Positions 2,197-63,749 of a DNA stretch of 64,000 bases are shown in pieces. Both the position numbers and the translations under genes were made by a program. Location: positions 69,139 to 133,138 of the forward strand of contig VMER01000001.1 of NCBI GenBank assembly GCA_007375645.1, in the 5' to 3' direction. The stretch is from Parcubacteria group bacterium LiPW_15. Its GTDB lineage: Bacteria > Patescibacteriota > Minisyncoccia > UBA6257 > 2-01-FULL-56-20. The notes below the pieces were generated by a model. That model saw only the letters and a program-made list of their open reading frames with translations. It was not told where the DNA came from and did no database searches. How positions within the stretch are numbered: position 1 is the stretch's first letter; every line of letters starts with the position of its first letter.

Positions 2197-2570
2197 TTTG
2201 TTGTTGGCAATCCGTAAGCCGGATTCTGTCGGGGACGATCATTTCTCTGGGCCATAGATTGCTCTATAGCTCAAGCGGGCACAAATCCGCCAGCTGGCGG
2301 AAGTACGACCCTTGCACCCAGTAAGGATTTTGCCGTTTCACCTCTTTGGTTTCCCAAAAAGCTCGCCAAGCACAAAATAAATTCTATGCTCGGCGCCTTG
2401 ACCCTTTCGAGTTTCGGCGTCTCTGCTCGCACCTCTATCCTTGCGGACGACGGCCGTTAGCCGCTACTTTTTTACCTAGCACACAAAGTGCTGCGGTGGT
2501 GTCCGGACTTTCCTCCCCCTAAGTTGTCTTGCGACGACCGGGAGCGATCGCCTGTATTACCAACTTTAGT
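2197..2570 (-). ncRNA. rnpB: RNase P RNA, bacterial type A
   Basis: minus-strand GGAGGAAAGTCCGGAC (P4 5-prime strand, RC of 2494-2509) and ACAGAATCCGGCTTAC (P4 3-prime strand, RC of 2214-2229); P1 pairing gttggtaat/attgccaac between ends; TGTATAAT extended -10 just upstream. Confidence 0.8.
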
Positions 2571-8082: not shown

Positions 8083-9924
8083 TTATAAAAGCTGCTTTCC
8101 GGCGAATAATTCTTTTGCCGCATTCCAAAACTCAGGGTGATCCTGTTTTTTTAACCAATACCACCACTCTGCGCCCCAGGTGTAAAAGGTGGAGAAACCG
8201 GTTTGGCGGGCGTAAGCGATATTATTTTTGAAATCATCCAGGCTGAAGAAGCTAAGCTGGGTCGGAATATCCACTTCATATATTTGCCTTACCATCCATG
8301 GTTCAAGCCCGAGTTCGCTTATCACAAATTCTTGGTTCGGTTTGCCGACAAGCGCACGGGTTATGTCGCGGCGCAGGGGATACAATTCCGGAGTAATTGG
8401 CCAGGTAATATAGCCGAACAATTTTGTATGAACTTTGCGGTAGAGTGTAGGGCCAAAAATATCCGCGCGTTTTGCGGTGCGATACCAGTCGCCGAATTCT
8501 CCTCCGTCGGTCATATATATTTTCCGTGTCGGATCCAACTCTCGCACCGTGGCTATCTCTTTCTCGATAAGCGCCGCGTTGGAGCCGGGACATTCGCCGA
8601 ACATCAGGAACGGTTCGTTTTCCACCTGCCAGTAAAGAATATTTTTATCTCCGCGATAGCGCTCTACGACTTCTTTTAGATAGGTAATGAGCTCATCATT
8701 CTTTTGCGCGCTTCCGGGATCTATCCAGGACGGGAAATGACATTCCGGCCAGCGAGGAACTTTTTGACCGACCACCAAGACAACGGGCACGCCTGCTTTG
8801 CGGGCTTCATTCATCTGCCAATCCAAATCTTCGAAATCATACTGGTCTTTTTTCGGCTCTATCTCGTCCCAGTAAGCTATCAGGCGTACGGTTTTTGGTT
8901 TTAAGTCGGTCAATATCGCCGTCAGGTTTTCCTGCCAACTTGAGCCGAAGCTTTTGCTCATTTGTTTTGAGAAGGTCACACCCCAGGTTATTTCTTCGGG
9001 ATCGGGAATCGGCTTAGATTCGTAGCTCTTTTGAAGGCCTAGTCCCAAAAGTCCCAAGAGGATCAAAATTGTGGCGATAATTTTGCCGGCAAGAATCCAA
9101 CCGCGGAATTTTTCATTGAGCCATGCCGGTTTAATTTTCGATATGGCAAATGCAATCAGGAATATAAGGACAAAGCGCACTCCGCTTAAGGATTCTACGA
9201 GCGCCGGCTGAGCTTCCAGGGCAATTCCGTAAAAGATCAGGAATGAGCTGGCGCCGGAAAGGGCGCGGTTCAGGAAATAAGAGATGCGATATTTATGGCT
9301 GGTGTCGGCGGAAGAGCTGAATATTCTTCTGCGCAAAGAGGGGATTGCAAGCAGGCAGAGGGCAATAACACCCGTGAAGAACTTCATAGAAACAAAGACA
9401 GTCACAAAGTTCGCGGTGTTGAAGGCCAGCTTTTGAGAGACGTCGGCTAAGCCGATAAAAAGAGAAGCTAAAATAACCCACAGAAATATTTTTTTGAAAT
9501 CTATCTTTTCGGTAAAGAAAAGAAGAAGCCCGCCGGCTACGAGCAGGGCGAAGGCGATCCCTTCGGCGACGTTGAGAGACGAAAAAGAGAAAAAGCCGGA
9601 AATCAAATACGTAGCGATCGGGGCGAAGCCACCAATAATAGCTAAAGTGCTCGAAACCCCTCCTTTCGCAAGCGCCGCGTAATAAGTCGCGAGAGAAACA
9701 AGGAATAGCGCGCCGGCGAGCAACGACAATAAAATCGTCGTCGTAGACGGAACGGCAAACCCGAATGGCGCGAAGAGGAGCCCCACGAAGTTCAAAAGGC
9801 CTATCCAGAAAATGTAGCTTAAGACTTGATCTTTTTTTGGCTTTTGGTCCAAAAGTATCTTGTCTATAACGAGGGATAGTCCCAAGAAGAGCTGGCCTAA
9901 AAGCGCCCAAAATATTCCACTCAT
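8083..9924 (-). CDS. fusion protein: N-terminal DMT/EamA-like 10-TM domain and C-terminal GH-A clan (GH5-like) glycoside hydrolase
   Basis: about 300 aa of hydrophobic helices; C-terminal WQVENEP (acid/base NEP) and ISELGLEPW (nucleophile E) motifs. Confidence 0.6.
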   Translation of the reverse strand: MSGIFWALLGQLFLGLSLVIDKILLDQKPKKDQVLSYIFWIGLLNFVGLLFAPFGFAVPSTTTILLSLLAGALFLVSLATYYAALAKGGVSSTLAIIGGFAPIATYLISGFFSFSSLNVAEGIAFALLVAGGLLLFFTEKIDFKKIFLWVILASLFIGLADVSQKLAFNTANFVTVFVSMKFFTGVIALCLLAIPSLRRRIFSSSADTSHKYRISYFLNRALSGASSFLIFYGIALEAQPALVESLSGVRFVLIFLIAFAISKIKPAWLNEKFRGWILAGKIIATILILLGLLGLGLQKSYESKPIPDPEEITWGVTFSKQMSKSFGSSWQENLTAILTDLKPKTVRLIAYWDEIEPKKDQYDFEDLDWQMNEARKAGVPVVLVVGQKVPRWPECHFPSWIDPGSAQKNDELITYLKEVVERYRGDKNILYWQVENEPFLMFGECPGSNAALIEKEIATVRELDPTRKIYMTDGGEFGDWYRTAKRADIFGPTLYRKVHTKLFGYITWPITPELYPLRRDITRALVGKPNQEFVISELGLEPWMVRQIYEVDIPTQLSFFSLDDFKNNIAYARQTGFSTFYTWGAEWWYWLKKQDHPEFWNAAKELFAGKQLL

Positions 9925-11150
9925 TCCCCTTTAATTATGGATTTATAGATTTCCGCGCTCGGGCGGAGAGTTCTTCTAAGAGTCCTTCTGTCCACCTCTA
10001 CCAATCCGAACTTGGGCCAGAACCCTTTGTCCCATTCGAAGTTGTCCAGAAGAGACCAATGGAAATATCCGCGCACATCCACCCCTTTTTTAATTGCGGA
10101 TTTTACCGCGGTAAGCGATTCGCGGATAAACCAACCGCGATTTGCGTCGTTCATATCCGCCAAGCCGTTTTCGGTTATGTAGATTGGTTTTTCGTGATGG
10201 GCGAACTCTTCCAATATTTTTTCGAGCCCCCTAGGATACAATTCCCAACCCATGTCCGAGATCTTTTCGTTCAAGTTCCGATTCGGGATCAAATTTACCC
10301 GGCTGTGAAAATAATAATTCAATCCGATGAAATCCAGGTCTTTTATAATTCTGTCCAAAAGCCAATTGTTCCAATAGTATTTTGCCTTTGCGGTTAGCCA
10401 GTTATCCCATTTGCTTCCCGCGGATTCGAAATAGGTCGGATCGGTGGAGAAGCCGATGGAGGCACTTTCCGTTTCGGAGCGGATCGCCCGGTGCATTTCC
10501 CGGTGAGCCCGGACAAGATTTTTTAAAACTTTAAAATAAGCGAAAGGATTGTCATTTTGCGGAGGCCAGATTCCGAAAAGATAGGAATTGCGGGCAAATA
10601 TCTCCGGTTCGTTCAGAGTTATCCAGAATTTAACATCGCTTCCGAATTCTTGCGCGAGTTTTCCGGCATAGCGGGCGATATATTTCGAAAAATCTTTGGA
10701 GCGTGCGCCGCCCTCTTCTGCGAGCCAGGCGGGCAGGGTAAAGTGCCAAACGGTGAGGAACGGTTCGAGCTTGCGCTCGCGCATTGCGCTTATCATCGCG
10801 CGATAATGATCCAGCGCTTCAATATCAAATTTTCCTTCCTCCGGTTCGACTCGGGACCACTCTACGGAAAAACGGTAGGCGTTCGTGCCCATCCCTTTGG
10901 CAAGGTCCAAGTCTTCCTCAAATCGATTCCAATAGTCCGCGGCGATTCCAGAAATATAATTCTCCGGATCAAGCGCATCATTTTTTACAAGCGGCCAAGA
11001 GGGAAGCCTCTTGTATTTTTTTGATCCGTGAGCCAAGCGCGACGCATTCAATTTTTCCCACTCCGTCCAATCGTTATGGTTTCCACCTTCAACCTGGTAG
11101 GCGGAAGTGGAAGTGCCGAAATAAAACCCTTTCGGAAACAAATCATCCAT
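9921..11150 (-). CDS. GH1 family beta-glucosidase/beta-galactosidase
   Basis: FPKGFYFGTSTSAYQVEGG, TLNEPEIF, YITENGLAD; 4-nt overlap with upstream fusion gene. Confidence 0.8.
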   Translation of the reverse strand: MDDLFPKGFYFGTSTSAYQVEGGNHNDWTEWEKLNASRLAHGSKKYKRLPSWPLVKNDALDPENYISGIAADYWNRFEEDLDLAKGMGTNAYRFSVEWSRVEPEEGKFDIEALDHYRAMISAMRERKLEPFLTVWHFTLPAWLAEEGGARSKDFSKYIARYAGKLAQEFGSDVKFWITLNEPEIFARNSYLFGIWPPQNDNPFAYFKVLKNLVRAHREMHRAIRSETESASIGFSTDPTYFESAGSKWDNWLTAKAKYYWNNWLLDRIIKDLDFIGLNYYFHSRVNLIPNRNLNEKISDMGWELYPRGLEKILEEFAHHEKPIYITENGLADMNDANRGWFIRESLTAVKSAIKKGVDVRGYFHWSLLDNFEWDKGFWPKFGLVEVDRRTLRRTLRPSAEIYKSIIKGE

Positions 11151-11235
11151 ATATATAGTATAGCGAAACGAAAATCTTTTTTGTCTAAAATTAAAAAGCC
11201 CCGTTTCCGTCGGTTGGCGGAGCGGGGCCCAGTTC

Positions 11236-11454
11236 TCACTGCGAGAGTTTCTCGAGTGGCAGCACGAGATCAAGCTGCTCAACGTAGTGGTTGCTTCCCA
11301 CTACGTTTTCTGTCACCCATCTGTTCGGATCCGTCGGGGCATGCCAGCAAGCCGTGGAAAGATCTCCTACATCTCCCGGATCTTCCGGGACGAGGGTGAC
11401 ACGCATGATGTCCGCTCCGTCGGACTTCGTTTCAAAGCCGATTTTTGCTCTCAT
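11236..11454 (-). CDS. hypothetical small protein (72 aa), GC-rich
   Basis: SD ggaaggagaag 5 nt before ATG, TTGCAA-N17-ATATAC promoter on minus strand, compound hairpin plus T-tract downstream; divergent from rRNA promoter. Confidence 0.45.
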   Translation of the reverse strand: MRAKIGFETKSDGADIMRVTLVPEDPGDVGDLSTACWHAPTDPNRWVTENVVGSNHYVEQLDLVLPLEKLSQ

Positions 11455-11565
11455 TCTCTTCTCCTTCCCATGTTCGGAATAGGCCAAAACTTGCTGCTCG
11501 CAGTATATGTCCGGAAAGCCAGCATTTGCAATACTTTCGGAGCTTCCCGGGCCCCCAGATAAGGG

Positions 11566-11593
11566 TTGACAAACGGTCGTGGATATATATACT
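11566..11593 (+). promoter_or_regulatory. putative sigma-70 promoter of 16S rRNA (TTGACA-N16-TATACT)
   Basis: consensus -35 at 11566-11571, -10 at 11588-11593, about 170 nt upstream of 16S. Confidence 0.45.
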
Positions 11594-11766
11594 TATCTTC
11601 ACGTGCGGACATCGGTCCGTCCGTTTGTTTCTTTGACATGCTAATAGGTAAAGGTTCAATAAAAAAGAGAGTTTTTTAGTTGTTCCAATTGTGTTTTAAA
11701 ATTGCCTCAAAATTTATTTTGAGAGCGAATCTGGGAGAAGCCTTCGGGCTACTCTAAGATTTTTAT

Positions 11767-13300
11767 GAGGATTTGATCCTGGTCCAGGATGAACGCTGGC
11801 GGTGTGGATAAGGCATGCAAGTCGAGCGGAACTAATTTTGAAGAAGTTGAGATTACATCAAGGCGACGGATTTATTAGTTTAGCGGCGAACGAGTTAGTA
11901 ACACCCTAGTCACGTACCCCGAAGTCAGAGATAGTCCGCCGAAAGGCGGGGTAATACCTGATATTGTCGCAAGACGAAAGCCGCAAGGCGCTTCGGGATC
12001 GGCTTAGGTCCGATCAGCTAGTTGGTAAGGTAACGGCTTACCAAGGCTATGACCGGTAGGGGAGGTGAGAGCCTGACCCCCAACGACGAGACTGAGACAC
12101 GGCTCGTACTCCTACGGGAGGCAGCAGTCGAGAATATTCGACAATGGGCGAAAGCCTGATCGAGCGACACCGCGTGCAGGATGAAGGCCTTCGGGTCGTA
12201 AACTGCGGTAACAAGACTGCAACTCAAGTGAGCGTCTTGTGAGAAGAGGTGGGTAACTACGTGCCAGCACCAGCGGTAATACGTAGACCTCAAGCGTTAT
12301 CCGGATTTATTGGGCGTAAAGCGCATGTAGGAGGTTTTGTGCGTCCTTGGTTAAAGCCCACCGCTCAACGGTGGAAGTGCCCGGGATACGGCAGAACTAG
12401 AGGGAGTTAGAGGTGAATGGAACCCACGGTGTAGGGGTGAAATCCGTTGATATCGTGGGGAACACCAAAGGCGAAGGCAGTTCACTGGGACTTTCCTGAC
12501 TCTGAGATGCGAAAGCGTGGGGAGCAAAAAGGATTAGATACCCTTGTAGTCCACGCCCTAAACGATGTCTGTTAGCTGTTTCGAGTATCGACCCTCGGGG
12601 TGGCGTAGCTAACGCGTTAAACAGACCGCCTGGGAAGTACGAGCGCAAGCTTAAAACTCAAAGGAATAGACGGGGACTCGCACAAGCGGTGGAACATGAG
12701 GTTTAATTCGACGGTACGCGAGGAACCTTACCAGGGTTTGAAATTCTAGGTGAAAGCCGATGGAAACATTGGCCCTCTCTCAAGGACGCCTAGTTCAGGT
12801 GCTGCATGGTTGTCGTCAGCTCGTGCCGTGAGGCGTTCCCTTAATTGGGGTAACGAGCGCAACCCCTGCCACGTGTTACAAGTGTCACGTGGAACTGCCC
12901 AGCTCCAAGATCGGGATTTTTAATAATCGTGATTTTAGAGCTGGGAGGAAGGAGGGGATGACGTCAAATCCGCATGGCCCTTTGATACCCTGGGCTACAC
13001 TCATGTTACAATGGTCAAGACAGCGGGCTGCCAAGCCGTAAGGCGGAGCCAATCTCTAAAACTTGACCCCAGTTCGGATTGGGGGCTGCAACTCGCCCCC
13101 ATGAAGCCGGAATCGCTAGTAATCGCGGATCAGCAACGCCGCGGTGAATACGTTCTCGAGTCCTGTACTCACCGCCCGTCACGCCAAGGGAGCCGGTAAT
13201 AGGTGAAGTTCGTTTACGCGAATCAGCCTAGGATCGGTGACATGGGCGAAGTCGTAACAAGGCACGCGTAGCGGAAGCTGTGCGTGAATCAATTAAACTA
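11767..13300 (+). rRNA. rrs: 16S ribosomal RNA (not followed by 23S in this window)
   Basis: TTTGATCCTGG..GATGAACGCTGGCGG at 5-prime end, GTGCCAGCACCAGCGGTAATAC, AAACTCAAAGGAATAGACGG, GTCGTAACAAGG near 3-prime end; exact 3-prime terminus uncertain. Confidence 0.9.
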
Positions 13301-18650: not shown

Positions 18651-18802
18651 GTTGAAAAAATAGCGGATTTATTGGATAATTTCAATACAACTGAATAACG
18701 GCCTAAACCGCTTAGCGATAGGTGGCATGGTCAAAAAACTTTCGAGGGCATCAAGCTCCTAGTCAGAGCACCCTCGAAAGTCATACCCCGAAAGGAGTAT
18801 GG

Positions 18803-19333
18803 GTGTCGCAAGACATCGCTGGCTGGGAGCTTTATGTTTCTGGCCAAATAAAATACTACATGGACGCAAAGTTTATAAAACATTTAATAAAGGGAAAAAT
18901 CGCCGAGATTATTTTTGAGCAAATGTTTCGTGAATCAGGGAAATATACAATTCTTCATTCCGGCTACGAATACACCCTGCCCGAGCTGGCTCAATATCAG
19001 CATCTTACGGAAGTGAAGGCCGTAATAGAAAATATCAAAAATGCGCCGGATTTCGTATTAATATCACAAGACAAAAAGGAAGTTCACTTGGTGGAGGTCA
19101 AATATCGCGACCCTAGAAGGCCGGAAGACTTGAAAGAAATAGTCGGAAAAACCTTAGAGATTTGGAATCCATCTTGGCTGTTTGTTGCATCACCTGACGG
19201 ATTTTTCTTTGAACCCTGCAACACAGTTTTAAGAAATAACGGGAATATTGAACGAATGTATGCAAGGTGGGTTGACCCTAAAATCCAGGAAGAATACCTC
19301 AAGCTGCTCAACCAATTTGAGCTGAAAGGATAG
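18803..19333 (+). CDS. PD-(D/E)xK-fold nuclease-like protein (start uncertain, ORF opens at 18722)
   Basis: APDFVLI ... VHLVEVKYR (D ... ExK); SD aaaggag 5 nt before in-frame GTG at 18803. Confidence 0.45.
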   Translation: MSQDIAGWELYVSGQIKYYMDAKFIKHLIKGKIAEIIFEQMFRESGKYTILHSGYEYTLPELAQYQHLTEVKAVIENIKNAPDFVLISQDKKEVHLVEVKYRDPRRPEDLKEIVGKTLEIWNPSWLFVASPDGFFFEPCNTVLRNNGNIERMYARWVDPKIQEEYLKLLNQFELKG

Positions 19334-54347: not shown

Positions 54348-55610
54348 ATGAGTTTTAATTTCGTATTCCAAAGTATTTTGGACTTTTTCGCTTTATATTG
54401 GTGGATAATCGTTCCAATAATCTTTTTGCCCCTTTATAGCTCAACCGCGCTCTTTGTAACCCACGAAAAGAGGAAACGCGAGAATAAGTGGGTAATTTTG
54501 GATATTAAAATTTCCAGGGAGACCAAGAAAACCCCGCAGGCGATGGAGCAGATACTCGAAACAATGAACGGCTGGGGGACTTTGCCCTCGAGGAAACCAA
54601 CGGAATGGGCGTCGCTTGAACTTATAAGCATCGGCGGCGAGATCCATTTTATGATCCGCATACTTGAGAAATACAAGAATCTTTTAGAATCCACGTTTTT
54701 CTCCTTTTATCAGGACGTAGACATAAAAGAAGTGGATGATTATATGGATCATGTGCCTTCGAACACGGCCCAGCTTTACGCGCGGGATCTGAATGTCTGG
54801 GGCACGGAACTTATCCTCGGAAAAGAAGGCGCGTACCCGATAAAATCCTATAAAGAGTTTACGAGCGGCGGCGAGGGCAAAGAATTCGACCCGATGTCCG
54901 TGTTCACGGAAATAATGGGCCGGCTTTTGCCGGACGAATTCTTGGGAGTCCAGATGATCCTTATGCCCATAAGCACGAAAAGCGTTCGGGAGAAATACAA
55001 GCCGCTTCTTGAAAAATTGAAGGCAAAGCCCAAGGAGGGCGAGACCTTGGATACCACCACCCTGAAACTGACTTTGGGAACCGACGCGAAAAAAGTAAAA
55101 GTAGTTGAGGAAAATTTGTCCAAGCCTTTTTTCAACACGCTCATCCGAGCGATATATGTTGCGCCCCGATCTTCTTTCCGCGAGAAATACGCGAAGCAGG
55201 GGATAGTGAGCTCCTTCAATCAATACGCGTCTCCGGATCTGAATTCATTCAAGAAAAATTCGCAAACCGAGATCGGCGATGTGCTTCCGAATCCGGACAA
55301 ACTTTTTGCTCTCTTTCCAAAAAGCCGGGATGAAGCCAGGAAGGAGCGGATATTGCACACCTACCGGCATCGGGACGTTCCTCCGGTAAGCGCCATGGGC
55401 AAACTTATAAGCTCGATGTTTTTTCATACAAATAATGCTTCGAGATTTGTGGAACTGTCCACGGAATCTTTGGCCACCGTTTTCCATCTGCCGACCACTG
55501 TGGTTTTGACGGCGCCGTTCATGCAGAGAGTCGAAAGCAGGAAGGTCGGTCCGCCTCAAGGGCTCGCGATATTCGGCGGGAACGAAGATCTGGAAATATT
55601 CGAAACATGA
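54348..55610 (+). CDS. hypothetical protein with N-terminal TM (420 aa)
   Basis: first gene of a three-gene operon with 4-nt overlaps. Confidence 0.45.
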   Translation: MSFNFVFQSILDFFALYWWIIVPIIFLPLYSSTALFVTHEKRKRENKWVILDIKISRETKKTPQAMEQILETMNGWGTLPSRKPTEWASLELISIGGEIHFMIRILEKYKNLLESTFFSFYQDVDIKEVDDYMDHVPSNTAQLYARDLNVWGTELILGKEGAYPIKSYKEFTSGGEGKEFDPMSVFTEIMGRLLPDEFLGVQMILMPISTKSVREKYKPLLEKLKAKPKEGETLDTTTLKLTLGTDAKKVKVVEENLSKPFFNTLIRAIYVAPRSSFREKYAKQGIVSSFNQYASPDLNSFKKNSQTEIGDVLPNPDKLFALFPKSRDEARKERILHTYRHRDVPPVSAMGKLISSMFFHTNNASRFVELSTESLATVFHLPTTVVLTAPFMQRVESRKVGPPQGLAIFGGNEDLEIFET

Positions 55611-56113
55611 ACCTAGATTTTTCAAATCTCACCTTGCCTCAGATATTCGAATACATCCGCATCGGGATAATCATTTTTGATTTTCTGTTGGTCGCGGCGA
55701 CTATTCATATATTCATGAAAGCGATAAAGATAAGGCCTCGGTTCAGGGCCGATATTAACCGGGCGCCGGTCTTAACCATCCGCAAAGAGGAATTGCTCGA
55801 AAAATGGAACGCGATAATGGAAAAATACACCGACGGCAAACCGGACAATCTGAAGATCGCGGTTATCCAGGGCGACGCCATGATCGACGGCATTCTTAAA
55901 AACGCCGGTCTCAAAGGCGAGCATATGGCCGATCGTTTGGATAATATCGAGCCGGGCGAGCTCAAGAGTTTCGAAGACCTTTGGCGTTCGCACAAGATCC
56001 GCAACAACATCGTTCACAACGAAGCCTTCGTGCTTAACAAGCAGATCGCGGAAACGGCTATCAAAGGTTACGAAAAGTTTTTAAAAGAGCTGGGGGTCTT
56101 AACTTCACAATAA
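55607..56113 (+). CDS. hypothetical protein with single N-terminal TM (168 aa)
   Basis: ATGA overlap with upstream gene. Confidence 0.45.
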   Translation: MNLDFSNLTLPQIFEYIRIGIIIFDFLLVAATIHIFMKAIKIRPRFRADINRAPVLTIRKEELLEKWNAIMEKYTDGKPDNLKIAVIQGDAMIDGILKNAGLKGEHMADRLDNIEPGELKSFEDLWRSHKIRNNIVHNEAFVLNKQIAETAIKGYEKFLKELGVLTSQ

Positions 56114-56114
56114 A

Positions 56115-57656
56115 ATGGCAAAAGAAAAAAAAGACGTAGTATTTTTCGCGAAAACGGACTTCCGGGACGCCGACCGAATTTTCGGTATTAAGCGCGCCGA
56201 CCGGAGACAGCATATGTATGTGATAGGAAAGACGGGAACCGGTAAAACCACTTTGCTTCGCAACATGGTCATTCAAGACATCGCGAACGGCGAGGGTCTT
56301 TGCGTGGTGGACCCGCACGGAGAGTTCGTCGAAGATCTTTTGAAAATGATCCCGAAAGACAGATTGGACGATGTGGTCTACTTTAACCCGGGCGACCCCG
56401 ATTTTCATGTCGGCTTTAATCCTTTGGAGATAAGCGACCCGAGGTATAAGCATCTTGTGGCTTCCGGACTGATGGCCATCTTTACCAAGATCTGGGCTGG
56501 CGTTTGGTCGCCTAGAATGGAATATATTTTGAACAACTGCGTCTTGGGCCTTTTGGATACTCCGGGGACAACTCTCTTGGGAATACCGAGGCTTCTGGTG
56601 GACAAGGAATTCAGGCAAAAAGTAGTCGCGAATATTCAGGATCCGGTGGTCAAAGCTTTCTGGTCCACGGAATACGAAGCCTGGAAAGACCAATATCGAA
56701 ACGAGGCCATTGCCCCTATCCAAAACAAAGTAGGACAATTTTTGTCCGTTACTTTGGTCAGGAATATTGTCGGACAGCAAAAGAGCACCGTGGATTTCTT
56801 CGAGATAATGAACAGCGGAAAGATCCTCTTGGTTAACGTGTCTAAGGGCAGGATCGGAGAAGATAACTCCGCGCTTTTGGGCGCGATGGTTATCACCAAG
56901 ATACAGCTCTCCGCGATGGATCGCATCCGTGTTCCCGAAGAAGAGCGCGTGGACTTCTACTTATATGTCGACGAATTTCAAAACTTCGCGACCGATTCTT
57001 TCGCCAATATCCTTTCCGAGGCGCGCAAATACCGTCTTTGTCTTACCATGGCGCATCAATACATCGGCCAGCTGGTGACGGATGTTTCCACAAAAGTTCG
57101 GGATGCTATTTTCGGTAACGTGGGAACCCAAATGATCATGAGAGTCGGTGCGGCTGATGCGGATTTTCTGGCCAAGGAATTGGAGCCGGAATTCGGCGCG
57201 CAGGACATGGTGAATCTTCCGAATCGCAGAATATATCTAAAGCTTATGGTGGACGGCGTGACTTCCCGTTCGTTTTCCGCCGCCACTTTGCCTCCGATAA
57301 AAACTCAATTTGAAGCTGCTGCGGAAGAAGACGTTATTAAAACCTCAAGGAAACGTTATGCCCGGCCTCGTTACGCGGTAGAGGAAGAGATAAGCGAGTG
57401 GAGCGAGGTTATGGGAGGCCCCCGAGGCGGGTCGCCAGCGCCGAGACAGGAAGCTCCTAGGCAAATGATTCCTTCCGAAGAACGAAGAGAAGCCCCGACT
57501 CAAACAATTTCCTTGAAAGAACTTGAAGGCAAAGAAACTTTCCCGTCCAAAGAAAAGGAACGGAAACCGGTTGAACCGTCGGATATTGATTCGGTAAGAA
57601 AAATGATAAGCGATGCAATGTCCGCTCCGAAAGACGAAGACGAAAATGAAAAATAA
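56115..57656 (+). CDS. P-loop ATPase of TraD/TrwB/VirD4-like (type IV coupling protein or HerA-like) family
   Basis: Walker A VIGKTGTGKTTLL, Walker B LYVDEFQNF, acidic C-terminal tail. Confidence 0.45.
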   Translation: MAKEKKDVVFFAKTDFRDADRIFGIKRADRRQHMYVIGKTGTGKTTLLRNMVIQDIANGEGLCVVDPHGEFVEDLLKMIPKDRLDDVVYFNPGDPDFHVGFNPLEISDPRYKHLVASGLMAIFTKIWAGVWSPRMEYILNNCVLGLLDTPGTTLLGIPRLLVDKEFRQKVVANIQDPVVKAFWSTEYEAWKDQYRNEAIAPIQNKVGQFLSVTLVRNIVGQQKSTVDFFEIMNSGKILLVNVSKGRIGEDNSALLGAMVITKIQLSAMDRIRVPEEERVDFYLYVDEFQNFATDSFANILSEARKYRLCLTMAHQYIGQLVTDVSTKVRDAIFGNVGTQMIMRVGAADADFLAKELEPEFGAQDMVNLPNRRIYLKLMVDGVTSRSFSAATLPPIKTQFEAAAEEDVIKTSRKRYARPRYAVEEEISEWSEVMGGPRGGSPAPRQEAPRQMIPSEERREAPTQTISLKELEGKETFPSKEKERKPVEPSDIDSVRKMISDAMSAPKDEDENEK

Positions 57657-58281
57657 GCTCGAGGTAGTTATTCTAACTGCCTTTCCGAAGATATTCGATT
57701 CTTATTTGAACGAGTCGCTTTTTAAGCGCGCTATTGCCAAAAAGATATTGAAATTTAAGATAGTGAACTTGCGTGATTTCGCGACCGGTAAACACAAGAA
57801 AATCGACGATCGGCCGTTCGGCGGGGGACCGGGAATGGTCTTGATGGTAGAGCCGATAACCAAGGCGCTTAAATCGCTAGGCGCGAAAAATAAAACCAGA
57901 ACTATTTTGTTTTCCACCCGGGGTAAAAAGTTAGATGCGGCGATGGCGAAGCGACTTTCCAAATATGACCGGCTTATCCTAATTTCGGGCCGCTACGAGG
58001 GCGTGGACGAACGAGTGGCGGAAGCGTTGGCGGACGAAGAAGTGTCTATCGGAGATTTTGTGCTTTCGGGAGGCGAACTTCCCGCCTTGGTGCTTTCCGA
58101 ATCTGTCGCGCGATTCCTACCCGGATTCTTGGGCAAACTCGAATCGCTCGAGGAACTTAAAGGTTCATATCCCGTTTATACTCGTCCCGAGGAGTTCAAG
58201 CTCGGGAAAAAGAAGCTAAAAGTCCCGCAGGTCCTGCTTTCGGGAGATCATAAAAAGATCGAGGAGTGGAGAAGAAAATAA
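57646..58281 (+). CDS. trmD: tRNA (guanine37-N1)-methyltransferase TrmD
   Basis: VVILTAFPKIF, DDRPFGGGPGMV, SIGDFVLSGGE. Confidence 0.85.
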   Translation: MKNKLEVVILTAFPKIFDSYLNESLFKRAIAKKILKFKIVNLRDFATGKHKKIDDRPFGGGPGMVLMVEPITKALKSLGAKNKTRTILFSTRGKKLDAAMAKRLSKYDRLILISGRYEGVDERVAEALADEEVSIGDFVLSGGELPALVLSESVARFLPGFLGKLESLEELKGSYPVYTRPEEFKLGKKKLKVPQVLLSGDHKKIEEWRRK

Positions 58282-58359
58282 AGGAAGGGTATCATAACGG
58301 CAAAAGAACGATTATATTTATTGTGATGGATAAACACCGAAAAATGATGCCTACCCACA

Positions 58360-59577
58360 ATGATTAGAATCACTAACATCAAAATCGAAAATTTTCGTTC
58401 CTGTATAAGTACCACGATTGCCTTACGCAAGGATTTGACAACTTTGATAGGTATCAACGGAGCTGGGAAGAGCAATATTCTAACCGGCATTCAACTACTG
58501 AGGTCGGCGGTGGCGACAAGTAGAAATAGATTTATTCATAAAGGCATTAGAGAGTCTCTTTCTCAAACTAACATCAGGTTAGATATAGACATCGACAACA
58601 AAAAATATATTCTGAAGGCAAATATCTACTACGATACAGATGAAGAAAATATAGACGAAATTGATTCCGTTGAAATTTTTATCAAAAAAGCAGGCTCTAC
58701 TCGGACTTGGGCCCCAATAAACGGACGCTCGTTAGATCTTATCCAACGATATAAATATCTACATAGAGTCCCGGAGAACTACATTCACTATTACAGTGAT
58801 TTTAATGCCGAGGATAAATTAAACATTAGAATATTGGAATACTTAGCAAGCATAAGTTATTACGGCGCAACTCAATTTTCGGATCCAACACAATCTCCAG
58901 TATCAATAGAGCTCGAAGACTCCAAACCTTCCTTGAGGACATATAGAACGGGGATGCCGCATAATAAATTTATTTTTGATTTATTTATTAGCTGGAAAAA
59001 AAAGAAAAAAGAATTTAATAGATTTATTAATATAGTCAACAAAAATGGAATTGGTTTAATCAGCGATATCAAATTTGCTGAGTTTAACTTACCCAATAGC
59101 ACCTATGGGGTTAAACCAGGGGGGAAGATTAGAAAGGAGGTCAAAAGTAAAAATATTATAATTCCCTCAGTCATTCTTGACGGCTTGTCGTTATCCCCGA
59201 ATCAACTTTCAGAGGGAACATTCAAAACGCTAGCGTTAATATTTTATATACTCAATGATCAAAGCGAACTTCTTTTAATTGAAGAGCCGGAAGTTTGTGT
59301 GCATCACGGTTTACTAAATAGCATAATTGAATTAATTAAAATCCAGTCAAAGCAGAAACAAATAGTTGTCAGCACCCATTCAGACTACGTCTTGGACAAA
59401 ATTAATCCAGAGAACGTTATAATCGTTAGGCGCAATAAAAAGGATGGTACAACTGCCAAGGCGTTGACCAAAACCCTTTCAAAGAACGACTTCGCGGTCT
59501 TGAAGGAATATTTAAACACCTCCGGAAACCTGGGTGAATATTGGAAGGAAGGGGGATTCGAAAATGAGCCAGATTAA
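58360..59577 (+). CDS. ABC-type (AAA_21/OLD-N-like) ATPase, AT-rich
   Basis: IKIENFRS..LIGINGAGKSN (Walker A), LLLIEEPEVCVHH (Walker B/D-loop), VVSTHS (H-loop). Confidence 0.7.
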   Translation: MIRITNIKIENFRSCISTTIALRKDLTTLIGINGAGKSNILTGIQLLRSAVATSRNRFIHKGIRESLSQTNIRLDIDIDNKKYILKANIYYDTDEENIDEIDSVEIFIKKAGSTRTWAPINGRSLDLIQRYKYLHRVPENYIHYYSDFNAEDKLNIRILEYLASISYYGATQFSDPTQSPVSIELEDSKPSLRTYRTGMPHNKFIFDLFISWKKKKKEFNRFINIVNKNGIGLISDIKFAEFNLPNSTYGVKPGGKIRKEVKSKNIIIPSVILDGLSLSPNQLSEGTFKTLALIFYILNDQSELLLIEEPEVCVHHGLLNSIIELIKIQSKQKQIVVSTHSDYVLDKINPENVIIVRRNKKDGTTAKALTKTLSKNDFAVLKEYLNTSGNLGEYWKEGGFENEPD

Positions 59578-60142
59578 GCGCATCGGCATAATTGCCGAAG
59601 ATGAGAGCGATTTTGAATCATCGAAAATTCTTATAAGGCGGTTAACTAAAAAAAAGAATTTAGATTTTAGAAAAAGTCTCGCAAACGGTTGTGGCAGGTT
59701 AAAGAGGAAGGCACCTACTTTTGCGGTTGATTTAAAAAATAGAGGTTGTGATTTGCTAATTCTCATGCATGACTTGGACAAGAATAATCTTGAAAAATTA
59801 AGGACGGAACTTGGAAAATTATTGCGCGGGAATCCTTTTCCAAAATATTTTGTTTGTATTCCAATCGAAGAAATTGAAGCATGGTTTTTAAGTGATCCGG
59901 CTACCATTAAAAAAGTTTTTAAGCTTAAACGCACTCCGAAAGTTGGCGACGAACCAGAGAGTATTGATTCTCCGAAAGAGAAATTAGGAGAATATGTTTA
60001 TTCATGCTCGGGTAATGAAAAAAAATATATTAATACGCACCATAATGCGCAGCTTGCATCGCAAGTCTCGCTAGATTTAATCAGAAAGAAGTGTGGGGCT
60101 TTCAATGAGTTGTGTAATTTTATTCTGACCCAAAAATATTAA
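59564..60142 (+). CDS. small Toprim-like (RloB/DUF4276-like by motif) partner protein, translationally coupled to the ATPase
   Basis: IGIIAEDESDFE (E-x-x-S-D Toprim glutamate motif) and LLILMHDLD (DxD); SD ggaaggaaggggg; 14-nt overlap with ATPase stop. Confidence 0.5.
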   Translation: MSQIKRIGIIAEDESDFESSKILIRRLTKKKNLDFRKSLANGCGRLKRKAPTFAVDLKNRGCDLLILMHDLDKNNLEKLRTELGKLLRGNPFPKYFVCIPIEEIEAWFLSDPATIKKVFKLKRTPKVGDEPESIDSPKEKLGEYVYSCSGNEKKYINTHHNAQLASQVSLDLIRKKCGAFNELCNFILTQKY

Positions 60143-60167
60143 AAACCCGTTTATTTCTTGGAAAAGT

Positions 60168-60196
60168 TTGACATCGCCCGCGCGGATTGATAATCT
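60168..60196 (+). promoter_or_regulatory. putative sigma-70 promoter TTGACA-N17-TAATCT driving the GC-rich island
   Basis: about 35 nt before ATG 60230. Confidence 0.45.
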
Positions 60197-60229
60197 GCGG
60201 CCAGTATCGATTGAAAGGGGAGACAGGCA

Positions 60230-60496
60230 ATGAGCCACAAGAATCCGACCGGTTGTTGGGTGTACAAAGGAAGCTACTCCGTGCTTCTCGCGGACGAGGC
60301 GGGCACCAATCATCTACCGCCAGGAGCGGTGTTGAGCGGTAGGACTGTGCGTGTTCAGGATGGATCGGTCGCTCAGTCGATGGGCGGCATCAACCTCTAT
60401 GCCGAGGGAATCTCTTTCGGCTGGGGCTACAAGGGCCTCAAAGAGATCCGCGATGGCAGAGGCAAGCTCCTCTGGCAGAACAAAGACTATCGCTGA
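60230..60496 (+). CDS. hypothetical protein (88 aa), GC-rich
   Basis: SD aaaggggag. Confidence 0.45.
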   Translation: MSHKNPTGCWVYKGSYSVLLADEAGTNHLPPGAVLSGRTVRVQDGSVAQSMGGINLYAEGISFGWGYKGLKEIRDGRGKLLWQNKDYR

Positions 60497-60537
60497 ACAG
60501 ATTTCTGAATCGGCGGAACAGAGAAGGGAGAAGTTAC

Positions 60538-60765
60538 ATGTCCGAGAAATTCTCTGCGGGAAGCAATGTGCGTCTCTACGAAGGGCCAGCTTTCCACCGG
60601 GTCCGACCCATGGTTTCCCCGCTCGTGCACGGAGAGACGTACGTGGTGGCGGAGACCATGGTGAGTACATGCTCCGGGGGACAGGAGGGACAACTCGTTC
60701 GTGTCCATCTGCCCAACGGCTGTAGGTCCAACTGGATCGAAGCGACCTGGCTCTGCCAGGCTTAG
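60538..60765 (+). CDS. small SH3b-like domain protein (75 aa), GC-rich
   Basis: SNVRLYEGPAFHRVRP..GETYVVAE..W..V.LPNGCRSNWIEATWL resembles bacterial SH3_3; SD gggagaag. Confidence 0.4.
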   Translation: MSEKFSAGSNVRLYEGPAFHRVRPMVSPLVHGETYVVAETMVSTCSGGQEGQLVRVHLPNGCRSNWIEATWLCQA

Positions 60766-60778
60766 ATCAGCTCTCTCA

Positions 60779-60858
60779 GGGCCTTCCGGGAAACCGGACG
60801 GCCTTTTTCATTTCAAAATTATAGCTTTTCATAATATACAAAATAACGGAGAAAATAT
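60779..60858 (+). repeat. DR-A: terminator hairpin ggccttccgggaaaccggacggcc plus T-tract and about 55 nt homologous to DR-B
   Basis: about 70% identity to 62297-62378 over 80 nt. Confidence 0.55.
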
Positions 60859-60859
60859 C

Positions 60860-60888
60860 TTGACGTTCGGCATAAAAAGTGCTACTAT
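60860..60888 (+). promoter_or_regulatory. putative sigma-70 promoter TTGACG-N17-TACTAT
   Basis: precedes 60952 gene. Confidence 0.45.
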
Positions 60889-60951
60889 CCTCGCATTAAG
60901 CAGCACCTTTAAACGGCACCTATGCCATAAAATAGGGGAAAGGAGGAGTCC

Positions 60952-61524
60952 ATGCTTCTCTCGGTTCTCGCCGCGTTGTTCCAAGTGTCCGCTTACGTGG
61001 CATATTTCGCTCAGGTGAGCGCCGGCGGATCAATTCCGAACCCGGCTTCCTGGAGCGTGTGGGCGCTTCTTTCCATCCTGAATGCCCTGACGTTCTGGAG
61101 GGCTTCGAAGGATGCGCTCGCAACAGCGCAGTTCTTCACCGGATCAGTCGCCTGTGTCATGGTTTGGACTTACTCGCTCATGACGGGGAAGTTCGTTCCG
61201 TTGGACACAAAAGCGTGGCTCGTTCTCATCTTCTGCTTCGTGGCTTGTGCGATCTGGTATGTGAAGCGAAGCGCGATTTACGCCAATCTCGTGATTGCCG
61301 GCATCTTCACCGTTTCATCGGTGCCGACTTTCGTGGGCGTGTGGCGAAACAGCCATGTGGAACAGCCGCTTGCGTGGATGTTCTGGACAACCGCATTTGC
61401 GGTTACCACGATCAACGTGCTTCGGCGAACCGATCGAACAAAACCGCGCTGGTGGTTCATCATGGCTATGCCGATCTATGGCCTCGTCTTCCACGGCCTG
61501 ATCGCCATCTGCGCTGCACGATAA
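60952..61524 (+). CDS. hypothetical 6-TM membrane protein, GC-rich
   Basis: SD aaaggaggag. Confidence 0.5.
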   Translation: MLLSVLAALFQVSAYVAYFAQVSAGGSIPNPASWSVWALLSILNALTFWRASKDALATAQFFTGSVACVMVWTYSLMTGKFVPLDTKAWLVLIFCFVACAIWYVKRSAIYANLVIAGIFTVSSVPTFVGVWRNSHVEQPLAWMFWTTAFAVTTINVLRRTDRTKPRWWFIMAMPIYGLVFHGLIAICAAR

Positions 61525-61537
61525 GAAGGGAGGATGT

Positions 61538-61885
61538 ATGTTCACAGCAAAGCGTTATCCGGAGGGAAAGTTCCCTCCCAAACGAGGCTCCAGAAGTATC
61601 TGGCACGTTCATTGCATGACAGGCGCCATCCAGGTCTTGAGGGACCTCGAGTTCCTGAAGGCTCTGGAGGACAATCCGCGTGACAGTGCCAAGATCCTTT
61701 TCGACGACGAATCCGAGGCGCTCGTCTCTCCCGGAGACGAACTTTGGGAGGAGCTCTTGAAGTTCGTCGCGGGGGGTTTCAAAATCGCGGTTTTCCCGTT
61801 CATTTTCAAGGCGAGGTACGTTCCCTGGACGGGCGCCCCGACCGACGCGAAGGAATTCGACGCCATTGAAATCAGGAAATCCTAA
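61538..61885 (+). CDS. hypothetical protein (115 aa), GC-rich
   Basis: SD aagggagga. Confidence 0.45.
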   Translation: MFTAKRYPEGKFPPKRGSRSIWHVHCMTGAIQVLRDLEFLKALEDNPRDSAKILFDDESEALVSPGDELWEELLKFVAGGFKIAVFPFIFKARYVPWTGAPTDAKEFDAIEIRKS

Positions 61886-61911
61886 CCAACCGAACAAGGA
61901 GAGGAGAGTAT

Positions 61912-62271
61912 ATGCCGCTCGTTACCATCCACCACAAGTTCGGTGTCCCTCAGGAGGACATCATCTGGAGCCTGGCCAAGGAATTGCCGGAAATCGTCGC
62001 CGAGGCCCTGAATGTGAAGGGAAAACCCGAGGCGCATCTCGACCCGGGCGATGTGGAGGTTCGGATCTCGAGGCTCGGCGAGCACGACGTGAACACGCGC
62101 GACGTCGAGATCATCGTCACTGCGAACTTCTACCTCGAGCGCATGGCGAACCTCGAGGAACGCGAGGAGATGATCCTGAACGCCGTCCGCGACTTTTTCG
62201 CTGACTACGATTTCAACGTCTCCGGTTACGTCTGGATCGACCTCAAGCTCGCCGCATTCGGCGCGCTGTAA
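61912..62271 (+). CDS. tautomerase-superfamily-like protein (Pro1 after Met), GC-rich
   Basis: MPLVTIHHKFGVPQEDIIWSLAKELPEIVAEAL resembles N-terminal beta-alpha-beta of 4-OT/MIF-like tautomerases; SD aaggagaggagag. Confidence 0.4.
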   Translation: MPLVTIHHKFGVPQEDIIWSLAKELPEIVAEALNVKGKPEAHLDPGDVEVRISRLGEHDVNTRDVEIIVTANFYLERMANLEEREEMILNAVRDFFADYDFNVSGYVWIDLKLAAFGAL

Positions 62272-62296
62272 CAAGACAGACGCAGCAGTTCTTCAT

Positions 62297-62378
62297 GGCC
62301 GTTCGGGAAACCGAGCGGCCTTTTTCTTTTGTAAAATTAGAACTTGTTATACTTTTATACATAATGGCGGCGGAAATA
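62297..62378 (+). repeat. DR-B: terminator hairpin ggccgttcgggaaaccgagcggcc plus T-tract and about 55 nt homologous to DR-A; overlaps comEC promoter region
   Basis: see DR-A. Confidence 0.55.
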
Positions 62379-63749
62379 GTTTTTTCGCTTTTCTCGGGAT
62401 TTATCTTAGGCGTTGTCGCGAGCGGTTCGGGAGTTAACATCTATACCGGCATTGTCGGATTTTTTATCGTAATCGCCGCCAGCTTTTTCTTGAGGCGAAA
62501 TCTTACAAAATACTTCGCCGTAGCTCTAGCCGCGTTTCTTTTGGGCTTCTTTTATTTTGTTTTATATGGGAAATTAGCCAGTGCGAAATATCCTAGTTTT
62601 GGAGTGAAAATCGCTATGGAGGTTATTGTCACGGGAGAAACGAGGATAAGCGGGACAGTTCAGCGGACAAAAGCCAAGCTGCTGCCACCATACGGCGGGG
62701 CGATAGATCTGGTTTCAAACGAAGGAATCCTTTTGGAATATGGCGACAGGATAAAATTTGAAGCCGCGCTTAACCCGGATAAGTATTCCACTCGTCCGGC
62801 GGCGAGAGTATACGCCCCGGAAATTGTTTCCAAAAATAACGGTTCGGGGCTCAAGCAATCGCTTCTGGGACTAAAAACAAATCTGCTCAAATCTCTCAAA
62901 GAAAATCTATCACCGCCCTCGGCCGCGCTCATGGGCGGACTTCTCTTGGGCGATAGGAATAGCTTTTCCGCGGACTTTAAAACCGCGATGAAGGGGAGCG
63001 GGACGACCCACCTGGTCGCGCTTTCGGGGTTCAATATAACGATCCTTGTAAACGCCATAGCGCTGGCCCTTGGCTCATTTTTGTCCCGCAAAATGCGCTT
63101 CGCGCTTTCGATAATGATCATCATCCTTTTTATCGTAATGGTCGGGGCGGAAGCGTCGGTCGTTCGGGCGGGGATTATGGGCGCGCTTCTCTTAATTTCC
63201 CAAGAGAGCGGAAGAATATATTCGCCGAGAAACGCAATAGCTTTTGCCGGATTTGCGATGACCGCTTGGGATCCGAATAACGTTTTCGATATCGGATTTA
63301 TCCTTTCTTTTGTGAGCCTAATGGGAATCGTATATATTCTGCCGGCCGTTAAAAACACATTTTTGCCGGGGAAAAATCCGAAAGGAATCGAGGAAGCGGC
63401 GCTTATGACCGTTTCCGCCCAGGCGGCGGTGTTGCCGATAGCCATAAAAACCTTCGGCGGGTTTTCTTTAACCGCGATAATTTCCAATTCGCTTATCACC
63501 GGTTTTGTTCCATACGCGATGCTTTCCGGATTTTTGGTTGCTGTCGCCGATTTCTTTTCGGCCGCCCTCTCATTTTTCTTCGGTTTTTTCGCCGAGATAG
63601 GTATGAAATATTTTATCTTTATAATCGAATTCTTCTCGCGGGTTCGTCTGCCCTTCGGAGATTTCCTAAACATTCCTTACGCCGCGGCAATTTATTACAT
63701 ATGTCTTATAATTTTTGTATATGCAGGGATTACCAAAGTTAAGCAATAG
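62364..63749 (+). CDS. comEC: ComEC/Rec2 competence channel, membrane domain only (ORF opens at 62295 inside the terminator)
   Basis: many TM helices, HLVALSGFNITIL (ComEC signature); stop at 63747-63749. Confidence 0.8.
   Translation: MAAEIVFSLFSGFILGVVASGSGVNIYTGIVGFFIVIAASFFLRRNLTKYFAVALAAFLLGFFYFVLYGKLASAKYPSFGVKIAMEVIVTGETRISGTVQRTKAKLLPPYGGAIDLVSNEGILLEYGDRIKFEAALNPDKYSTRPAARVYAPEIVSKNNGSGLKQSLLGLKTNLLKSLKENLSPPSAALMGGLLLGDRNSFSADFKTAMKGSGTTHLVALSGFNITILVNAIALALGSFLSRKMRFALSIMIIILFIVMVGAEASVVRAGIMGALLLISQESGRIYSPRNAIAFAGFAMTAWDPNNVFDIGFILSFVSLMGIVYILPAVKNTFLPGKNPKGIEEAALMTVSAQAAVLPIAIKTFGGFSLTAIISNSLITGFVPYAMLSGFLVAVADFFSAALSFFFGFFAEIGMKYFIFIIEFFSRVRLPFGDFLNIPYAAAIYYICLIIFVYAGITKVKQ

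Follow-up and report, generated by a model that had tools for sequence, protein, structure and literature searches.

An AT-rich ATPase-DUF4276 gene pair between trmD and comEC of a CPR bacterium: a candidate anti-phage cassette of the HEC-01 type

What is the AT-rich pair of genes that lies directly downstream of trmD in LiPW_15, a Liptonbacteria-like CPR bacterium, and is it a defence system? The question was raised by a preliminary description of the window (the entire 64,000-nucleotide stretch of DNA that was analysed), in which an ABC-type ATPase of 405 residues, translationally coupled to a Toprim-like partner of 192 residues, was put forward as a split, candidate anti-phage module. The annotation of the LiPW_15 MAG is less forthcoming, naming the products, here called A and B, 'ATPase' and 'Uncharacterized protein', respectively. 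Both genes, their 14-nt overlap, the Shine-Dalgarno-like sequence preceding gene B and all the protein motifs originally quoted are indeed present in the sequence (Table 1).

Table 1. Features of the trmD-comEC region, in window coordinates, and content of the corresponding region in sister strains (L082-L086)
Feature	Position	Strand	Remarks
trmD	57646..58281	+	left flank; Pfam tRNA_m1G_MT, 2e-48
Weak sigma-70-like site TGGAGA-17-TATCAT	58267..58295	+	consensus scan; spans the trmD stop codon
Strain-variable region trmD-comEC	58285..62339	+	4.05 kb; AT-rich A-B cassette plus GC-rich five-ORF block
A-B cassette	58285..60161	+	1.88 kb; blastn breakpoints against L082-L086 plus edge inspection
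Gene A	58360..59577	+	ATG start, 405 aa; ABC-type ATPase, AAA_15/AAA_21, PADLOC HEC-01A-like
Shine-Dalgarno-like GGAAGGAAGGGGG of gene B	59543..59555	+	8 nt before the ATG of B; from sequence
Gene B	59564..60142	+	ATG start, 192 aa; DUF4276 protein, predicted Toprim fold
Promoter-like TTGACA-N17-TAATCT	60168..60196	+	starts the GC-rich block at the right cassette edge; conserved in L082
comEC	62364..63749	+	right flank; Pfam Competence, 2.8e-44
trmD-comEC content, this window			A-B cassette plus GC-rich block
trmD-comEC content, L083/L084			empty; spacer of 170-195 bp
trmD-comEC content, L085/L086			179-aa ORF, pP_pnuc_1 nuclease, metallophosphoesterase, two small ORFs
trmD-comEC content, L082			255-aa ORF, the metallophosphoesterase, small ORFs

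The overlap arises since the TAA stop codon of A occupies positions 59575-59577, downstream of the B start. An alternative GTG start at 59534 would yield a B protein of 202 residues, but the 192-residue version is favoured because most homologs begin at the position corresponding to the sequence MS(K/Q)(I/V)K. The Shine-Dalgarno-like sequence of gene B is contained within the codons of the conserved WKEGGF tail of protein A. Chance open reading frames can be ruled out, since A and B each have hundreds of homologs, with identities reaching 59-61%, and their catalytic residues are invariant. The cassette comprises these two genes only, with a leader of around 78 nt and a trailer of 19 nt. The sigma-70-like site at its left edge matches the consensus at 9 of 12 positions, no better than the expectation from shuffled sequence; to judge from sequence, it is a possible promoter for the cassette, with read-through from trmD equally possible. 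No strong terminator was seen in a scan of the sequence 3' of B.

The composition of the pair, estimated by eye at 35-38% GC in the preliminary description, was measured at 0.362 for positions 58360-60142 (1783 nt), compared to a window mean of 0.474 (sd 0.034). This is the minimum among 1245 windows of equal length. GC3 values follow the same trend: the flanking genes lie at 0.52-0.62, whereas A has 0.39 and B has 0.33. The gene immediately upstream was confirmed as TrmD by Pfam.

Protein A matches the Pfam families AAA_21 (1.5e-21) and AAA_15 (5.9e-19), and also SMC_N. Its motifs include a Walker A (G31-S38, within GINGAGKSN at residues 31-39), a Q-loop (Q172), an LSEG signature (283-286), a Walker B of sequence IEEPE (307-311, within LLLIEEPEVCVHH at residues 304-316) and an H-loop (H340, within VVSTHS at residues 336-341). 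In an alignment of 36 homologs, G31, G36, K37, Q172, LSEG, the OLD-style Walker B and H340 are all invariant, as is the C-terminal tail, GNLGEYWKEGGFE. The top four PADLOC matches are without exception to HEC-01A models (1e-28 to 1e-26; score 98 bits), with Old, AbiLi, AriA, PtuA, GajA and mad3 models scoring lower, and homologs bear the JGI name 'predicted ATP-dependent endonuclease of OLD family'. There are, in addition, weak NCBIfam matches to RecF, RecN and Rad50. When an AF2 model of A (pLDDT 85) was compared to solved structures, the closest folds were Rad50 heads and PtuA ATPases, the latter from Septu and retron systems.

Protein B belongs to DUF4276 (PF14103), the sole Pfam family reported for it at E <= 1, with a score of 66.6 bits against a gathering cut-off of 30.2; residues 12-186 align with profile positions 2-190 of 192. 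AAA_21 for A and DUF4276 for B, both among the families that the preliminary description listed for checking, are thus matched, the latter at full length and above the gathering score. Among PADLOC families matched by B, 17 of the 20 are HEC-01B models (best 1.2e-13; score 49 bits), one of which, PDLC04196, spans residues 6-185. A search of all PDB chains with the B family profile produced just a spurious match to a designed protein (E 0.31), so that B has no solved relative by sequence, and structural comparison was based on a predicted model (pLDDT 93.5, pTM 0.88).

In that model, the predicted secondary structure runs strand 6-11, helix 14-28, strand 34-39, helix 43-59, strand 64-68, helix 76-87, strand 94-98, and the four-strand beta-alpha core is followed by a C-terminal helical region. 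The Toprim signature consists of a Glu at strand 1, a Gly after strand 2 and a DxD after strand 3, in a four-strand beta-alpha core (PMC6755086). Residues E12, G42 and D70xD72 of B, lying just past strands 1, 2 and 3, respectively, reproduce this signature on the predicted core. E12 and D16 lie in the IIAEDESDFE motif (residues 9-18) and D70xD72 in LLILMHDLD (residues 64-72); the full set of invariant residues is E12, D16, G42, D70xD72, E103xE105 and K138. A Foldseek comparison of the model with the PDB placed first the Toprim region at the C-terminus of OLD from Burkholderia pseudomallei (PDB code 6nk8; probability 1.0, TM 0.52, E 2e-3), bearing out the suggested similarity to the Toprim fold. 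This structural evidence is of moderate strength. The same conclusion for DUF4276, that it is a new Toprim member, has been reached independently (PMC12065111).

The parallel with OLD may extend to the active site. In the Burkholderia enzyme (BpOLD), E404 and T506/E508 are metal-B ligands and K562 is catalytic (PMC6755086); D16, E103xE105 and K138 of B occur in an order which parallels them. We infer from this parallel that B could possess a complete two-metal site, and the metal-binding site of HEC-01B has been described as OLD-like (Payne et al. 2024, bioRxiv 10.1101/2024.01.29.577857).

How, then, does the pair relate to known systems? HEC-01 is a candidate system of PADLOC-DB v2 (Payne et al. 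2024, bioRxiv 10.1101/2024.01.29.577857) and, as assigned here from the best PADLOC model matches independently of PADLOC's own coverage thresholds, it is the closest described relative for both proteins. Like A-B, it consists of an ABC ATPase and a small Toprim protein encoded by adjoining genes on one strand. Its founding copies were defined inside Hma (helicase/methylase/ATPase) systems (Payne et al. 2024, bioRxiv 10.1101/2024.01.29.577857), whereas the present copy stands alone, and in a CPR genome. Given the moderate scores of 98 and 49 bits, A-B is best regarded as belonging to a distant subfamily. Two published phage tests of HEC-01 disagree: the first gave no protection (Payne et al. 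2024, bioRxiv 10.1101/2024.01.29.577857), while in the second one representative gave E. coli B protection from one or more of the phages T7, T5 and T4.

An AAA_15/21 ATPase similarly accompanies a DUF4276 protein as MAD3-MAD4 of the MADS system, where mad3 and mad4 are genetically required for defence (Maestri et al.). Nevertheless, A and B score only 67.1 and 14.2 bits against the MAD3 and MAD4 NCBIfam models, compared to cut-offs of 420 and 160, respectively. A scan of neighbouring families found none of MAD1, 2, 5, 6, 7 or 8, the neighbours being TrmD, small ORFs lacking family matches and ComEC, and identification as MADS was rejected. The OLD proteins of classes 1-2 (P2 Old, BpOLD, TsOLD) share with A the IEEPE Walker B, and their Toprim region shares with B the Glu, an acidic residue four positions later, the DxD, a second acidic pair and the Lys. 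However, OLD proteins (classes 1-3) carry ATPase and Toprim in one polypeptide where A-B has two, the C-terminal region of OLD is far larger than B, and B has no match to Toprim_Old (PF20469) at E <= 1.

The resemblance to PARIS, AbiL or RloAB proposed in the preliminary description did not survive comparison of the partner proteins. AbiL (AbiLi/AbiLii) and RloA/RloB are, like A-B, two-gene combinations of an ATPase and a Toprim-like partner, and A matches an AbiLi model at 1.4e-23, but AbiLii and RloB are DUF4435 and RloB (PF13707) proteins, and B is neither: it matches no AriB, AbiLii or RloB model in PADLOC and neither DUF4435 nor PF13707 in Pfam. AriB of PARIS is likewise a DUF4435 protein, of around 300 residues compared to the 192 of B; AriA models match A at 5e-23 and 2e-20, more weakly than those of HEC-01A, and AriA is absent from the top 50 structural matches of A. 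PARIS and AbiL/RloAB were rejected on the family of their partner proteins. Gabija and Septu were also rejected, there being neither a GajB UvrD-like helicase nor a PtuB HNH partner next to the pair. The fold of PtuA does resemble that of A (8eea, 9e90), and PtuA and GajA models match its sequence, but the Toprim of Gabija is fused within GajA while that of A-B is a separate protein. The neighbour family scan found no type I R-M genes near A-B, and no methyltransferase or restriction gene adjoining it, as had been stated at the outset. By membership, A-B falls in Pfam DUF4276, the Toprim superfamily and PADLOC HEC-01.

The surroundings of the cassette were compared to those in sister strains, in which TrmD is 90-95% identical. 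Gene order is kept on either side: SecDF, further upstream, then sigma factor, DUF8128, VirD4-like ATPase and TrmD on the left and, on the right, ComEC followed by a Lactamase_B-fold protein, an amidohydrolase and FtsW. (The mechanical ORF of trmD begins at 57613 and its true start is likely to be Met12 at 57646; that of comEC begins at 62295 with Met24 the probable true start, ComEC of the sister strains having 461 residues.) By blastn, nucleotide homology to all the sister strains breaks off at 58271-58284 and is picked up again at 62334-62340. Between these points, the sister strains have either an empty site or different cargo (Table 1), including in L085/L086 a nuclease with a weak PADLOC Aga_Nuclease match. 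Since the flanks are kept while the content varies, A-B can be considered a mobile cassette in a strain-variable hotspot. Its right edge is set by the sequence from 60162 onwards, common to L082 which there lacks A-B; together with the homology breakpoints, this delimits the cassette as given in Table 1. Neither direct or inverted repeats nor an integrase or transposase were found at its edges. A-B is best explained as an intact, horizontally acquired two-gene cassette.

Downstream of it lie five small GC-rich ORFs (60230-62271) on the same strand as A-B. Neither these nor two ORFs upstream gave informative matches in Pfam, PADLOC or NCBIfam. A 43-nt repeat occurs in this GC-rich block at 60776 and 62293 and resembles a pair of terminators. 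Near-identical hairpins with GNRA loops end two gene blocks at trmD-comEC and are seen nowhere else in the 64 kb.

The conservation of the pair was assessed by scanning one genome per species for relatives of B, which yielded 143 relatives, of which 80 loci were kept. At every one of the 80, the gene immediately preceding the B relative, on the same strand, encodes an A-like ATPase, and the two proteins are encoded by separate ORFs, in accord with the co-occurrence suggested earlier. Over 73 loci the two genes overlap or abut, with junctions that vary from -27 to +17 nt, the commonest value being -8. The hosts represent around 15 phyla, with Bacteroidota (24) and Pseudomonadota (15) foremost; Cyanobacteriota, Desulfobacterota, Acidobacteriota, Planctomycetota, Verrucomicrobiota and Myxococcota are among the others, and four of the genomes are CPR. 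Identity to A and B reaches only 54-61% in their nearest homologs, those with names being Bacteroidota, and is 38-45% in the CPR copies. The identity between two A proteins is correlated with that between their B partners (Mantel r 0.79, a value reached in 0 of 999 permutations; 60 complete pairs), and in all 60 of these pairs every catalytic residue of both proteins is invariant. The AT-richness is also general, the cassette being AT-richer than its flanks at 72 of 73 loci by a mean of 10.5 points.

No conserved third gene accompanies the pair: the 146 immediate neighbours at the 80 related loci fall into 153 Pfam families, none found at more than four loci; among them are housekeeping genes and small numbers of integrases, transposases and defence genes. 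When 1.84 billion cluster representatives were searched with a profile, 2428 DUF4276 clusters were obtained, nearly all of around 190 residues. A single distant relative of the cassette was found among IMG/VR viral contigs, and the cassette is therefore not typically phage-borne. That the pair is conserved and co-evolves, that its catalytic residues do not vary and that it is systematically AT-rich add comparative support for A-B as an autonomous, selected and mobile unit.

Taken with the family assignments, these data suggest that A-B is probably a split OLD-type, ATP-gated Toprim nuclease acting in defence or abortive infection, a working mode like those of OLD, PARIS and Gabija. Translational coupling would lead to A and B being made in fixed proportion, and the two proteins would form a complex, the split nuclease. 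Within it, A would dimerise on ATP, sense infection and gate B, in which E12, D70 and D72 would bind metal A and D16, E103 and E105 metal B, with K138 as the presumed catalytic lysine. B would then cut nucleic acid, and either invading DNA would be destroyed or abortive infection would ensue. DNA is a somewhat likelier substrate than tRNA by analogy with MADS, whose methylase could be deleted only jointly with mad2 or mad3 (Maestri et al.): this would place the source of toxicity in the ATPase arm, and in a DNA-methylation context. Weighing against the proposed mechanism are the negative outcome of the first HEC-01 test and structural evidence of moderate strength.

Several other explanations deserve consideration. 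The pair might be a selfish, toxin-antitoxin-like addiction module in which B is a nuclease toxin restrained by A, persisting because cells that lose it die and bringing no net gain in resistance to phage. In its favour, the Pfam description of AAA_21 mentions a putative AbiEii toxin (type IV TA system), the AT-rich cassette is compact and turns up in contexts that are unrelated, and one of the HEC-01 tests showed no defence. Set against this, the other test was positive, the ATPase of MADS is needed for toxicity rather than neutralisation and, at the present locus, a clean empty site in one sister strain and other cargo in others imply that loss or replacement is tolerated. We consider pure addiction unlikely, although TA behaviour and abortive-infection defence are compatible with each other. 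The same sister strains bear on whether A-B could be part of a larger system requiring the five GC-rich genes or other neighbours, as might be supposed from the single strand and single variable region that they share and from the want of a strong terminator after B. Not only is the composition of the two blocks opposite (GC 0.36 against 0.56), but L082 carries the GC-rich block without A-B, that block starts with a conserved promoter-like site and no third gene is conserved across the 80 related loci, making a larger system very improbable.

A housekeeping role in DNA repair or chromosome maintenance, either as a RecF/RecR-like or Rad50-like ATPase with a Toprim protein or as a Cran1-like OLD ATPase of the cell cycle, might be read into the Rad50 heads as closest folds to A and into its weak matches to RecF, RecN and Rad50. 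RecR, moreover, is a Toprim protein. An archaeal OLD-family ATPase is also reported to have a non-defence role in the cell cycle (PMC12796447). Yet TIGR00611 (RecF) scores 34.8 bits on A against a cut-off of 172, leading to rejection of RecF/RecR, and the cassette is missing from sister strains despite their 90-95% identity in TrmD; foreign composition, patchy distribution and unrelated neighbours further render a housekeeping pair highly unlikely. Finally, the composition, unadjusted to the host, and the weakness of the upstream promoter-like site could betray a recently transferred remnant, unexpressed or non-functional in its CPR host. This too has very little probability, since both ORFs are full length compared to homologs, all catalytic residues are intact, and the Shine-Dalgarno sequence and the overlap are preserved. 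The split nuclease acting in defence is thus retained as the preferred interpretation, and the original suggestion of a split ABC-ATPase and Toprim candidate defence module is upheld by the AAA_21/AAA_15 and DUF4276 families, the HEC-01A and HEC-01B matches, the OLD Toprim fold match and the conservation of the pair at 80 of 80 loci; none of the three outcomes that the preliminary description named as refuting it was observed.

The locus does not reveal a new mechanism, and A-B is not a new kind of system, since the architecture of ATPase plus DUF4276 and the Toprim nature of DUF4276 are already published. Of the suggestion that it may be uncharacterised in its lineage, the novelty of lineage and setting holds good, while the kind was already catalogued as HEC-01, with relatives in MAD3-MAD4. 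Four points are new in this analysis: that the host belongs to the CPR, that the hotspot is located exactly and has an empty-site allele, that the cassette is systematically AT-rich across phyla and that its residues parallel the two-metal site of OLD one by one. One may speculate further that the trmD-comEC junction is a dedicated site of cassette exchange, where short blocks are swapped without an integrase, and that the stand-alone pair there is a distinct split-OLD subfamily with a trigger or substrate unlike those of PARIS/OLD, possibly acting on DNA which enters a DNA-scavenging organism through the neighbouring ComEC uptake channel; this is a long shot.

A-B is a well-supported member of the HEC-01-type family, a known but still poorly understood candidate anti-phage family for which, its two phage tests being in conflict, comparative support is useful. 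CPR bacteria (Patescibacteria) have small genomes, and few recognised defence systems are generally credited to them. The locus provides a clean natural comparison between otherwise syntenic strains in which the site is empty, holds A-B or holds other cargo, and so shows that candidate defence cassettes are indeed exchanged among such bacteria at a hotspot of fixed location.

The cassette encoding the ATPase and the DUF4276 protein exceeds its host in AT content at 72 of the 73 loci, most extremely in Hymenobacter psychrotolerans, where its GC content is 0.317 compared to 0.629 (locus L013). This points to frequent acquisition from donors of low GC content, or else to selection favouring an AT-rich sequence. 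The C-terminal tail of the ATPase (A), GNLGEYWKEGGFE, comprising residues 389-401 (window ~59524-59562), is nearly invariant among homologs, and the codons of this same tail form the Shine-Dalgarno sequence of gene B, which encodes the DUF4276/Toprim protein. The tail is thus doubly constrained, as a peptide and as a ribosome-binding site; it is also a candidate A-B or A-A interface.

The cassette, the lowest-GC stretch of the window, is directly followed by the highest (60200-62290; GC 0.557, GC3 0.70-0.84), in which five small ORFs are found. Comparison of these with Pfam, PADLOC and NCBIfam gave nothing informative, the sole match being to one NCBIfam entry and far below threshold. Most of this GC-rich block (60162-61910) is also present in sister strain L082, at 78-83% identity, and is absent from the sister-strain loci L083-L086, while the ORF at 61912-62271 is found in the window alone.

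The variable region between trmD and comEC additionally contains both copies of a 43-nt direct repeat (81% identical) that occurs nowhere else in the 64 kb. Each comprises a GGCC..CGG-GAAA-CCG..GGCC hairpin and, after it, a T-run, resembling an intrinsic terminator. The variable region of L082 has two further copies (at 11230 and 13257); L083 and L085 yielded none. The repeats may be terminators of the usual kind, or they may mark cassette boundaries. The mechanical ComEC ORF begins at 62295, inside one such terminator-like hairpin. Since homology to the sister strains, whose ComEC is 461 aa long, starts at ~62334-62340, Met24 (at ~62364) is the probable true start.

Upstream of trmD lies a gene trio conserved in CPR. 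The mechanical trmD ORF (from 57613) overlaps the 3' end of the trio's type IV coupling ATPase gene, and trmD itself probably starts at 57646. Elsewhere in the window, the 16S rRNA gene is complete and a 23S rRNA match is lacking throughout the 64 kb, suggesting that the rRNA genes are unlinked.

Coordinates of features in the window and at the trmD-comEC site of sister strains
Feature	Position	Strand	Description
RNase P RNA	2200-2563		class A
16S rRNA	11761-13299		complete
LOOT RNA	18700-18817		90.9 bits
Trio gene	within 54348-57656		420-aa protein; DUF8128 in sister strains
Trio gene	within 54348-57656		168-aa ORF, without matches
Trio gene	within 54348-57656		513-aa TrwB/VirD4-like type IV coupling ATPase (TrwB_AAD_bind 7e-18)
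Five small ORFs	within 60200-62290	+	88, 75, 190, 115, 119 aa
43-nt repeat	60776-60818		3' of ORF 60538-60765
43-nt repeat	62293-62335		3' of ORF 61912-62271
L085 cargo	8679-11684		179-aa ORF; 265-aa pP_pnuc_1 (PF18165) protein; 258-aa metallophosphoesterase
L082 cargo	8674-10246		255-aa ORF; same metallophosphoesterase as L085

At the trmD-comEC site, sister strains L085 and L082 carry other cargo. The pP_pnuc_1 protein of L085 weakly matches the PADLOC Aga_Nuclease model, and the 255-aa ORF of L082 has no family matches. These cargo genes may be uncharacterised defence candidates.
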